Origin: Escherichia phage RB69
Sequence record: NC_004928.1
Direction: 5' to 3' (one strand)
Length of the DNA: 64,000 bases
Part shown: in pieces, positions 50,719-53,599 of the stretch
Layout: each line of letters begins with the position of its first letter
How positions within the stretch are numbered: position 1 is the first letter of the stretch
Notes under the pieces: model-generated
Told to the model about the DNA's origin: nothing
Databases searched by the model: none
What the model saw: only the letters and a program-made list of their open reading frames with translations
Program-made: the position numbers and the translations under genes

Positions 50719-50726
50719 TATAAATA
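50719..50726 (+). promoter_or_regulatory. late promoter TATAAATA
   Basis: Exact TATAAATA 30 nt upstream of uvsW. Confidence 0.65.
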
Positions 50727-50755: not shown

Positions 50756-52270
50756 ATGACTGACATTAAAGTACATTTTTATGATTTTAGTCACGTGCGC
50801 ATTGAATGCGACGAAAGTACGTTTTACGAACTTCGTGACTTTTTTAGCTTTGAAGCTGACGGGTATAAATTTAACCCAAAATATCGCTATGGGCAATGGG
50901 ATGGTAGAATTCGACTTTTAGATTACAATCGTTTGTTACCATATGGACTTGTAGGACAAATAAAAAAGTTCTGTAACAATATGAGTTATTCTGTATGGAT
51001 TGACCCTAAAATCTTTGAGACCGAAGACCTTACCAGGGAAGATTTTGACGCGTGGCTTTCTAAACAAGAAATTTATTCAGGCAACGCCAAAATCGAACCA
51101 CATTGGTATCAAAAAGATGCCGTATATGAAGGTCTGGTTAATCGTCGTCGAATTTTAAACCTTCCGACATCAGCAGGTAAATCACTAATCCAAGCACTTT
51201 TAGCTCGATATTATCTAGAGAACTATGAAGGTAAAATTCTCATTATCGTCCCTACAACAGCATTGACAACCCAAATGGCTAATGATTTTGTTGATTATCG
51301 CTTGTTTAGTCATTCGATGATTAAGAAAATTGGCGGTGGTGCTGATAAAGCGGACAAATCTAAAAACGACGCTCCAATTATTGTTGGCACATGGCAAACG
51401 GTAGTTAAGCAGCCTAAAGAATGGTTCTCTCAGTTCGGTATGATGATGAACGATGAATGCCACTTAGCAACAGGCAAAAGTATTTCTTCAATCATCTCAG
51501 GATTAAATAATTGCATGTTTAAATTCGGTTTATCTGGCTCATTAAGAGACGGAAAAGCCAATGTAATGCAGTACGTAGGTATGTTCGGCGAAATCTTCCG
51601 TCCTGTTAGCACGTCTAAATTAATGGAAGACGGACAGGTAACTGAGCTTAAGATTAATAGTATTTTCCTTCGTTATCCAGACGAATTCGCCACCAAATTA
51701 AAAGGTAAAACATACCAAGAAGAAGTTAAAATTATTACCGGACTAAAACGTCGTACAAAGTGGATTGCTCAACTTTCGGTAAAATTGGCTAAGAAAGACG
51801 AGAACGCCTTTGTAATGTTTAAACACGTTACACACGGTAAAGAAATATTTGAAGCTATTAAAGAGCTTGGATACGAAAAAGTTTATTACGTATCAGGTGA
51901 AGTTGATACTGAAACACGTAACGCTCTTAAAGTCATGGCAGAAAATGGTAAAGGCATTATTATTGTCGCATCATATGGAGTATTCTCTACCGGTATTTCA
52001 GTCAAGAATCTTCATCATGTTATTTTTGCTCATGGTGTTAAATCAAAAATTATCGTACTTCAAACCGTAGGTCGTGTGCTTCGTAAGCACGGTTCTAAAG
52101 CTGTTGCTACAGTTTGGGATCTCATCGATGACGCAGGTGTAAAACCTAAATCATTAAATACTAAAAAGAAGTATACTCATCTTAATTACTTGTTAAAACA
52201 CGGTATTGATCGTATCCAACGTTACGCTGATGAGAAATTTAACTATGTAATGAAAACAATTAATTTATAA
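50756..52270 (+). CDS. uvsW: UvsW DNA helicase (SF2)
   Basis: MTDIKVHFYDFSHVRIECDESTFYELRDFFSFEADGYKFNP...; Walker A PTSAGKS; matches T4 UvsW. Confidence 0.95.
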   Translation: MTDIKVHFYDFSHVRIECDESTFYELRDFFSFEADGYKFNPKYRYGQWDGRIRLLDYNRLLPYGLVGQIKKFCNNMSYSVWIDPKIFETEDLTREDFDAWLSKQEIYSGNAKIEPHWYQKDAVYEGLVNRRRILNLPTSAGKSLIQALLARYYLENYEGKILIIVPTTALTTQMANDFVDYRLFSHSMIKKIGGGADKADKSKNDAPIIVGTWQTVVKQPKEWFSQFGMMMNDECHLATGKSISSIISGLNNCMFKFGLSGSLRDGKANVMQYVGMFGEIFRPVSTSKLMEDGQVTELKINSIFLRYPDEFATKLKGKTYQEEVKIITGLKRRTKWIAQLSVKLAKKDENAFVMFKHVTHGKEIFEAIKELGYEKVYYVSGEVDTETRNALKVMAENGKGIIIVASYGVFSTGISVKNLHHVIFAHGVKSKIIVLQTVGRVLRKHGSKAVATVWDLIDDAGVKPKSLNTKKKYTHLNYLLKHGIDRIQRYADEKFNYVMKTINL

Positions 52271-52295
52271 GGGCTTCGGCCCTTAGGAGATAAAA

Positions 52296-52526
52296 ATGGT
52301 ACTTGAATTTAAACAATTTTTATACGAAGCATCTATTGACGAATTCATGGGTAAAATTGCTAGTTGTCATACCTTAGAAGGGCTTGAAGAATTGGAAGCT
52401 TATTATAAGAAACGTATAAAAGAAACGGAATTAAAAGATACAGATGATATTTCTGTCAGGGATGCCTTAGCAGGTAAGCGTGCCGAACTTGAAGGCGACG
52501 ATGAGGATGCGGAAGAAGATTTCTAA
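52296..52526 (+). CDS. uvsW.1: UvsW.1
   Basis: 76-aa acidic ORF directly after uvsW. Confidence 0.8.
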   Translation: MVLEFKQFLYEASIDEFMGKIASCHTLEGLEELEAYYKKRIKETELKDTDDISVRDALAGKRAELEGDDEDAEEDF

Positions 52527-52607
52527 TTAAAAAAAGGCCCGACCTTTTTGGAAGGGCCAAAAACCATAGGCAAAAAGGTAACACTATAGTAAAAGTTGGG
52601 TTTCGTT

Positions 52608-52751
52608 CAATTGCTCTTCTGAACTTTCTGAAACCGGCAATTGTTGTACATAATTATAACAAGGACCAGGATGTGCTGGACCTTTGTCTGTTTCAACAAC
52701 CAATGCAGAATCGATTGGAGTTTTACAGACAACACAAATCTTATCTGACAT
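52608..52751 (-). CDS. small Cys-containing protein (47 aa)
   Basis: Not in ORF track; hand translation MSDKICVVCKTPIDSALVVETDKGPAHPGPCYNYVQQL...; GGAG RBS. Confidence 0.35.
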
Positions 52752-52876
52752 GATTGTCTCCTCTGAATTATATATATCTATTTATAACCCCATCTTAAAG
52801 CGCATTTCTTGTACACGCTTTAAACATGCTTCCATTTCTGCTAAAAGTCTAAATACTTCTTTATAATTTGTCATAT

Positions 52877-53104
52877 TTACCCCATATCTCTCATATGCAT
52901 ATCAATGCCCATATCTTTAGAATAAAAATATTCATCAAGATATCCGGCAAATTTTCCTTTAATATAAAGGACATCTTCACCACACGGGTGGTTCGTCAGA
53001 ATACGAATATCCTGACGTCGTAGACGATACTTTTCCATTAAGAATTTAATTTCTGTTTCAAATTCTTCATCATTATTAAAGGCATCTTCAATTGAATAAC
53101 GCAT
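52877..53104 (-). CDS. hypothetical protein (uvsY-upstream small gene)
   Basis: 75-aa ORF immediately downstream of uvsY on the same strand. Confidence 0.55.
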   Translation of the reverse strand: MRYSIEDAFNNDEEFETEIKFLMEKYRLRRQDIRILTNHPCGEDVLYIKGKFAGYLDEYFYSKDMGIDMHMRDMG

Positions 53105-53517
53105 TATTGCCCCGCTTCAAATTCTCGCATATCTTGAATATGTTTAAGTGCAAAACTACGAGACTTAACCGCATCAAGTGCACCACTACAGAACTCAAGT
53201 AAAATTCCCCAGTATTGTAAAGTAGTCTCTATTTTAAGCACATCTTTATCTGCGGCCAGGACAGTTTTCATTTCAGATTTCTCGTATCGGTCCATACTGA
53301 ATTCATCACCATCACCTCGTCCCGAGTAGTAGTCTAATCTTGCTTTTAGAGCAGTTTTCTTCTGAGTCTCTATACGCAACATTTCTTTACGAATAAATGA
53401 GTGCTTACGTAGCCATTTGCTGTATAACTTAACATTATTCGCCGTCTCATATTGCAACTTTGTCGTATCAATAGCTAAGTCTGCGTCTAACTCTTCCTGT
53501 AAATCTTCCAGCTTCAT
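53104..53517 (-). CDS. uvsY: recombination mediator UvsY
   Basis: From ATG 53517: MKLEDLQEELDADLAIDTTKLQYETANNVKLYSKWLRKHS... matches T4 UvsY (137 aa). Confidence 0.93.
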   Translation of the reverse strand: MKLEDLQEELDADLAIDTTKLQYETANNVKLYSKWLRKHSFIRKEMLRIETQKKTALKARLDYYSGRGDGDEFSMDRYEKSEMKTVLAADKDVLKIETTLQYWGILLEFCSGALDAVKSRSFALKHIQDMREFEAGQ

Positions 53518-53572
53518 AATATTCTCTCTTTTAACTAATAATCTCCCGGCTGTATCGGAAGGACCTAAAACC

Positions 53573-53599
53573 ATTATACATAGGTTGCCTTGAAGCATT
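53573..53599 (-). promoter_or_regulatory. candidate MotA-type middle promoter for uvsY
   Basis: Minus strand AATGCTTCA then 12 nt then TATAAT, inside the 3' end of gene 25. Confidence 0.5.

Follow-up and report, generated by a model that had tools for sequence, protein, structure and literature searches.

A short open reading frame (ORF) on the minus strand of Escherichia phage RB69, located in the 64,000-nt stretch of NC_004928.1 analyzed here (hereafter, the window), is a real, translated gene that encodes an acidic protein of 55 residues. As judged from its sequence and map position, it is the ortholog of T4 uvsY.-2 and a member of the DUF2685 family. Family alignments and a structural model make it very probable that the product, UvsY.-2, is a zinc finger that carries a conserved tail, probably for docking. 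As an explanation of the whole, we consider it reasonably probable that this ortholog of UvsY.-2 is an acidic zinc-finger protein that uses its docking tail to act as an adaptor or regulator in the late recombination-replication circle of the phage. The gene, the family, and a fitness effect are already on record, to which the present analysis makes small additions: a CCHC ligand set, a motif in the tail, and acidity throughout the family. uvsY.-2 is one of the few T4 genes with no assigned function for which a fitness effect has been measured and complemented, and the CCHC site, the invariant E42, the docking motif, the family-wide acidity, and the linkage to uvsY and uvsW provide handles that go beyond the database entries. 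Our literature search returned no relevant paper naming DUF2685 and no published mechanism for uvsY.-2.

The ORF begins with the ATG at 52751-52749, and its translation is MSDKICVVCKTPIDSALVVETDKGPAHPGPCYNYVQQLPVSESSEEQLNETQLLL. A preliminary description of this DNA had listed it as an untracked, Cys-containing ORF of 47 aa between uvsW.1 and uvsY, preceded by a good ribosome-binding site (RBS). Our reading agrees with that description at the 5' end: the start codon, the opening residues (MSDKICVVCKTPIDSALVVETDKGPAHPGPCYNYVQQL), the translation of the first 38 residues, the RBS (which we read as GAGGAG with a 6-nt spacer before the ATG), and the Cys pattern (in our numbering, C6 and C9 in a CxxC motif and C31 as the third Cys) are all as given there. 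The 3' end had to be revised. There is no in-frame stop codon at 52608, where the ORF was thought to end, and the frame remains open up to the TAG codon; the end had been placed 8 codons early, and the missed residues, LNETQLLL, are the best-conserved part of the tail. The location between uvsW.1 and uvsY holds, although more exactly uvsW.1 lies on one side and a 30-aa ORF followed by uvsY.-1 lies on the other. The ORF had remained untracked because it is short and falls under the ORF-length cutoff, but the T4 annotation already includes this gene under the name uvsY.-2. As 40 ORFs of at least 25 aa occur within 4 kb, the size of an ORF alone is no evidence for a gene, and the evidence is conservation. 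The features of the locus are listed in Table 1.

Table 1. Features of the uvsY.-2 locus of RB69 (positions in the window) and the antisense coding sequence (CDS) annotated in Mosigvirus AV111.
Feature	Position	Strand	Basis or remark
uvsW helicase, convergent neighbor	50756..52270	+	504-aa ORF; 87% identical to T4 UvsW
uvsW.1, convergent neighbor	52296..52526	+	Pfam UvsW-1, E 7e-27
Intrinsic terminator after uvsY.-2	52529..52558	-	Hairpin GGCCCUUCC-AAAAA-GGUCGGGCC (52558-52536) followed by U7 (52535-52529)
uvsY.-2 coding sequence	52584..52751	-	55 codons and TAG stop (52586-52584)
Residues 39-55, putative acidic disordered linker and C-terminal motif	52587..52637	-	Column counts, pLDDT 59-71, net charge -4
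Residues 1-38, predicted CCHC treble-clef zinc finger	52638..52751	-	Candidate ligands C6, C9, H27, C31
Shine-Dalgarno sequence GAGGAG	52758..52763	-	Read from sequence; identical in T4
T4-type late promoter box TATAAATA	52779..52786	-	Pattern search; 27 nt upstream of ATG
30-aa ORF MTNYKEVFRLLAEMEACLKRVQEMRFKMGL between uvsY.-1 and uvsY.-2	52782-52874	-	phrog_12503, E 8e-9
uvsY (recombination mediator)	53104..53517	-	Upstream, same direction; tblastn 83% to T4 UvsY over 137 aa
AV111 antisense CDS	L001 1799-2005 = OR352941.1 17072-17278	+	Record annotation

The protein matches the Pfam family DUF2685 (PF10886) over its full length (E 1e-31; 109.4 bits versus a curated cutoff of 25), with residues 3-55 aligned to positions 1-55 of the 55-position profile, and it also matches PHROG 1043 (phrog_1043; E 7.5e-30). 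T4 UvsY.-2 (NP_049797.1, UniProt Q00778), which likewise consists of 55 aa, is identical to the RB69 protein at 51 of the 55 residues; the substitutions in T4 relative to RB69 are A26V, V35I, Q36K, and Q37E, and they spare the conserved columns. The T4 gene is located at 114496-114663 on the minus strand, the same map position as that of the RB69 ORF, and the neighbors uvsW, uvsW.1, uvsY.-1, uvsY, 25, and 26 are shared by the two phages. As in T4, where the gene lies downstream of uvsY and uvsY.-1 and is convergent with uvsW, the RB69 ORF is on the strand of uvsY, downstream of uvsY, and convergent with uvsW.1 and uvsW. The GAGGAG RBS, the late promoter box, and the terminator hairpin are identical in kind and place in both phages. 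The two loci differ in the gap between uvsY.-1 and uvsY.-2, which is only 26 nt long in T4, whereas the 30-aa ORF is inserted there in RB69. The family traits, C-x2-C-K and G-x-V-H-x-G-x-C followed by a C-terminal E-x-[QE]-L-L, are all present in the RB69 protein, as is every conserved column of the 62-sequence alignment described below.

Conservation in related phages, which the preliminary description had named as a check on the ORF, proved to be extensive. With tblastn, matches to uvsY.-2 were obtained in 1249 phage records, whose hosts range from Escherichia to Vibrio, Aeromonas, and Acinetobacter, and a profile search that exhaustively covered 1.84 billion representatives yielded 66 clusters at the 50% level, most of which are stand-alone proteins of 51-67 aa. 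A natural fusion of 126 aa (P0030, phrog_26998) has an N-terminal portion of 72 aa that matches nothing of known function, and a fold search of BFVD returned only uncharacterised family members. The RB69 and T4 genes differ at 18 of 165 nt, distributed over 16 codons, 12 of which are changed synonymously and 4 non-synonymously, and uvsY.-2 is under purifying selection across the T4-like phages (Straboviridae). T4 UvsY.-2 (Q00778) has been quantified by mass spectrometry in infected cells, and the gene was assigned to the class 'middle RNA / late protein' in time-resolved omics (PMC9697503 supplement); this detection takes the role of the ribosome profiling that the preliminary description had named as a second check. 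Knock-down of T4 uvsY.-2 by CRISPRi-ART, which employs dCas13d, led to its classification as 'Semi-Fit'; with a single guide, the efficiency of plating (EOP) was 5e9 versus 0.5-1e10 for the control and the plaques were smaller, and complementation restored EOP and plaque size for the complemented genes of that paper, uvsY.-2 among them (PMC11879866).

The nearest relative of the RB69 stretch, Mosigvirus AV111 (97.9% over 1.4 kb), is annotated differently at this place: its record carries a plus-strand CDS for a 68-aa 'hypothetical protein' and omits uvsY.-2. One plus-strand frame is also open across uvsY.-2 in RB69, and on this ground the minus-strand frame could be taken for a chance ORF and the plus-strand ORF for the true gene. 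We assign this reading a negligible probability. The plus-strand frame is broken by a stop codon in T4, and the minus-strand uvsY.-2 of AV111 is intact and 100% identical to the RB69 copy, so that the plus-strand CDS of AV111 is an antisense annotation artefact. It is the minus-strand frame that has the Pfam family match and the signature of purifying selection and whose protein has been detected in T4; the conservation and proteomic data already refute the notion that uvsY.-2 is not a gene.

The preliminary description had also proposed a small zinc-binding protein, a proposal that gains computational support from ligand conservation, the AlphaFold2 fold, and weak profile matches. In our family alignment, made of 62 diverse members (representatives), only C6, C9, C31, and E42 are invariant, while K10 (61/62), H27 (60/62), and G29 (60/62), as well as G24 and V26, are nearly so. 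The fourth ligand is predicted to be H27, whose position is occupied by Cys in the other two members, and the resulting ligand spacing is CxxC-x17-[H/C]-x3-C. Cys is found at the H27 position in the divergent homolog of a Slopekvirus-like Klebsiella phage (RCIP0052). Positions that coordinate a metal typically alternate between His and Cys in this way. AlphaFold2, supplied with 59 sequences, gave a model with a pLDDT of 81 overall and 84-91 over residues 1-40, in which the CxxC motif is placed on a hairpin, another beta-hairpin follows, and residues 30-37 form a helix; an earlier model agrees with it. H27 immediately precedes this helix and C31 falls within the first helical turn, an arrangement that suggests a treble-clef layout. 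Residues 1-38 probably fold around one structural zinc, coordinated by C6, C9, H27, and C31, as a treble-clef finger.

When 59 members were scanned against Pfam, sub-threshold matches to DUF2175, zf-Vps39_C, zf-FCS, zf-FLZ, C1, and LIM were obtained, and a profile search of the PDB gave a weak match to the Vps39 C-terminal zinc finger (zf-Vps39_C, 6ze9; E 0.0018). The structural neighbors of the model are all small zinc fingers (eL24, FCS, LIM, C1, HIT, and GATA), none of them significant. A PDB sequence search with the single protein returned noise only, and no solved structure of a relative was found by the PDB sequence and profile searches. UvsY.-2 shares with the FCS/TRASH/Vps39-C/eL24-type fingers the CxxC knuckle, the interval of about 17 residues, and the [H/C]-x3-C element at the start of the helix, and the topology of the AlphaFold2 model agrees with theirs. 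We also compared UvsY.-2 with the YacG type of gyrase inhibitor, which is defined by a C4 finger with FCS-like third and fourth ligands and a tail that is inserted into GyrB, and rejected this assignment. E. coli YacG (PDB 4TMA chain I) differs in having four Cys ligands, in its lack of sequence similarity to UvsY.-2, and in its unrelated tail, and nothing ties UvsY.-2 to gyrase or T4 topoisomerase.

The remaining residues, 39-55, appear to form a flexible acidic linker that ends in a short amphipathic motif. The linker contains the element l-x-E-S, in which the Glu is E42, invariant in the 62 members, and the C-terminal motif is L-x-E-[TVI]-[QE]-L-L-[LM], represented in RB69 by L48-x-E50-T-Q-L-L-L. 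In nearly all members, this motif lies at the C-terminus or at most 2 residues from it. AlphaFold2 predicts the whole segment to be flexible, with the pLDDT values given in Table 1. The family is acidic, with a median pI of 4.5 (range 4.1-6.7), a median net charge of -6, and a tail charge of about -4. Because this acidity extends to the whole family, protein binding is likelier than nucleic-acid binding. The tail motif may well dock into a hydrophobic groove of a partner protein, in which case UvsY.-2 would plausibly be neither an enzyme nor a nucleic-acid binder but a small adaptor or a competitive regulator.

Tethering by acidic-hydrophobic tails is frequent among the T4 proteins of replication, recombination, and late transcription. 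In T4, gp33, gp55, gp43, and DNA ligase attach to the gp45 clamp through tails with the motif L-D-F-L-[LFY] (PMC2988020; PMC7892883 Suppl. Table 2), and an amphipathic helix of the gp32 tail binds Dda (PMC11551737). UvsY.-2 resembles the clamp-binding tails in that a short acidic-hydrophobic motif is placed near the C-terminus after a variable linker, but it lacks the core L-D-F. It likewise resembles the C-terminal domain of gp32, which is an acidic tail with Leu-rich elements (...DDTDLDDLLNDL), but no motif can be aligned between the two beyond acidic residues followed by LL. The acidic tail of gp32 is also said to contact UvsW. Two further types of tail were considered and rejected. An SSB-tip-like tail was defined by an acidic run, an obligatory terminal hydrophobic residue with a free carboxylate, and a motif fixed at the last residues; 10 of the 62 UvsY.-2 members stop directly after the LL pair, and several more continue past it (LLNG, LLTD, LLID, MLMD, each written with the pair). 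The host beta-clamp motif QL[SD]LF, like the SSB tip, disagrees with the family logo, in which E replaces Q in 18 of the 62 members and many members have either no residue after LL or an extension there.

The expression signals of uvsY.-2 were analyzed in the same sequence. Its late promoter box is one of 18 such boxes found by the pattern search in the 64,000-nt window, versus 8.7 expected. Acinetobacter phage Konradin has the same box at the corresponding position, as does T4, whose copy overlaps the stop codon of uvsY.-1; the RB49, KVP40-like, and Aeromonas relatives lack it. The terminator is located between the convergent uvsW.1 and uvsY.-2, and its hairpin and T-run are also present in T4; the RNA fold has an energy of -19.1 kcal/mol over a 69-nt stretch (z = -2.5), and a simple consensus scan missed the hairpin because of two internal mismatches. 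With a late box and a terminator of its own, uvsY.-2 can be expressed from a separate late transcript. Transcription that starts at the uvsY promoters very likely reads through into the gene as well, which fits the 'middle RNA' class of T4 uvsY.-2. Promoter-like sites picked up by a sigma-70 consensus scan were no commoner than in shuffled sequence, and an Rfam scan of 52200-53200 gave nothing near threshold.

The partner of UvsY.-2 might belong to the late DNA recombination and replication machinery of the phage, that is, the circle of UvsY, UvsW, UvsX, and gp32. We suggest this because uvsY.-2 travels as a block with uvsW and usually uvsY and because, by analogy, T4 proteins of this circle are tethered by acidic-hydrophobic tails. 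In all 7 genomes whose neighboring genes we located by tblastn, uvsY.-2 and uvsW converge, and in 5 of the 7 uvsY was detected directly upstream; in Konradin, there is no uvsY upstream of uvsY.-2. Phages of Escherichia, Klebsiella, Acinetobacter, Aeromonas, and Vibrio all retain the gene at this location, and in Slopekvirus-like and KVP40-like phages uvsY, uvsY.-2, and uvsW stay together, away from genes 25 and 26. In a KVP40-like Vibrio phage (MN794232.1), genes 25 and 26 are not adjacent to the block, and uvsW.1 was not detected. However, T4-like phages share much of their gene order, and clustering in T4 does not always reflect a common function, as seen from the baseplate genes 25 and 26 that adjoin uvsY; adjacency is thus weak evidence. 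Moreover, the CRISPRi-ART screen that rated uvsY.-2 'Semi-Fit' rated both uvsY and uvsW 'Not Fit' (PMC11879866), a result that fits poorly with a role of uvsY.-2 purely dependent on them. A more specific version of the adaptor model, which we put forward tentatively and regard as rather doubtful, is that the tail of the zinc-finger adaptor occupies a docking site normally offered to gp32-type or gp33-type tails and thereby tunes the late shift to recombination-dependent replication. The candidate owners of such a site would be UvsW, UvsY/UvsX, Dda, and gp59 and, less likely, the gp45 clamp. If true, the UvsY.-2 adaptor would add a new small regulator to a replication system that is among the most thoroughly studied.

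Other functions can be weighed against the same data. The tail could bind gp45 like those of gp33, gp55, gp43, and DNA ligase, in which case the late-made UvsY.-2 would compete for the clamp or ride on it and modulate late transcription or replication. Its acidic-hydrophobic C-terminal tail on a flexible linker corresponds to the general description of T4 clamp epitopes (PMC2988020), the gene has a late promoter box, and the regular expression [DEQ][FLM]L[LMIF], when required at the C-terminus, singles out gp33 and UvsY.-2 alone from the annotated T4 genes, although this expression was composed post hoc, after both tails had been seen. When ORFs were compared by BLOSUM62 with L-D-F-L-[LFY] (PMC7892883 Suppl. 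Table 2), for which true ligands give 34-38, UvsY.-2 ranked 26th of 566 ORFs with the 7-mer and 103rd of 566 with the 5-mer core. Furthermore, the gp33 tails of five genera retain T-L-D, which UvsY.-2 never has, its tail being T-Q-L-L-L. The poor rank and the missing T-L-D make the clamp reading weak, and we regard it as quite improbable. The mild knock-down phenotype bears on another proposal, in which UvsY.-2 is a virion-assembly helper or a minor structural protein. The late promoter box and the late class of the protein would suit such a role, as would its place beside the baseplate genes 25, 26, and 51, with 25 and 26 adjoining in most genera. Nevertheless, two of these baseplate genes, 26 and 51, were rated 'Fit' in the CRISPRi-ART screen (PMC11879866), and in the Slopekvirus-like and KVP40-like phages the gene has stayed with uvsY and uvsW, not with 25 and 26; an assembly role accordingly seems to us a distinctly poor prospect.

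Acidity is the property on which the two other proposals turn. UvsY.-2, being small and very acidic, could be directed at the host as a DNA mimic or as a YacG-like inhibitor of a host protein, countering defence, so that its loss would cost fitness only in some hosts; the authors of the CRISPRi-ART study suggest that unknown Semi-Fit genes may include defence inhibitors (PMC11879866). We consider this unlikely because the position of the gene is constant across the phages of the five host genera named above and because uvsY.-2 belongs to the middle/late genes rather than to the early ones. Counter-defence genes aimed at particular hosts usually have a patchy distribution and lie in variable regions. 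By contrast, acidity argues against a finger that binds nucleic acids, for example as a small transcription or translation regulator. Many treble-clef fingers do bind nucleic acids, and eL24 and GATA, which are examples of them, are among the structural neighbors of the model. Yet the finger has a net charge of about -1 and the whole protein one of about -6, the pI stays at 4.1-6.7 throughout the family, and no conserved basic patch is present apart from K10, so that this function is very improbable. We retain the adaptor or regulator with a docking tail as the preferred reading of uvsY.-2.

Several observations concern the surrounding genes. The mechanically delimited ORF of uvsY (53104-53598, minus strand) has 164 aa because an in-frame upstream ATG lengthens it up to where gene 25 ends; homology to T4 UvsY (137 aa) identifies the ATG at 53517 as the true start. 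In the T4 reference, uvsW is still a single CDS of 1764 nt with a sequence-discrepancy note (L002 1678-3441 = NC_000866.4 112677-114440), whereas RB69, as well as tblastn against T4, separates UvsW (504 aa) from a second product, UvsW.1 (76 aa, Pfam UvsW-1). A TATAAATA box is found at 50719-50726 on the plus strand, 30 nt ahead of the start of uvsW (50756). Such a box would fit the late expression of T4 UvsW. In the Slopekvirus-like Klebsiella phage (OR532846.1 9139-15489), uvsY, uvsY.-2, uvsW.1, and uvsW directly follow the capsid genes 23 and 24, and the uvsY-uvsW block is inverted relative to T4. The 30-aa ORF between uvsY.-1 and uvsY.-2, which is absent from T4, was detected by tblastn in 81 phage records (RB18, RB27, RB68, AR1, and others) and is unannotated in most of those listed; in RB69, its TAA stop codon falls inside the late box of uvsY.-2. 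Finally, a 67-aa entry named 'DUF2685 domain-containing protein, partial [Enterococcus faecalis]' (P0003) is 91% identical to the RB69 protein and most likely represents coliphage contamination of the assembly, not a bacterial homolog.
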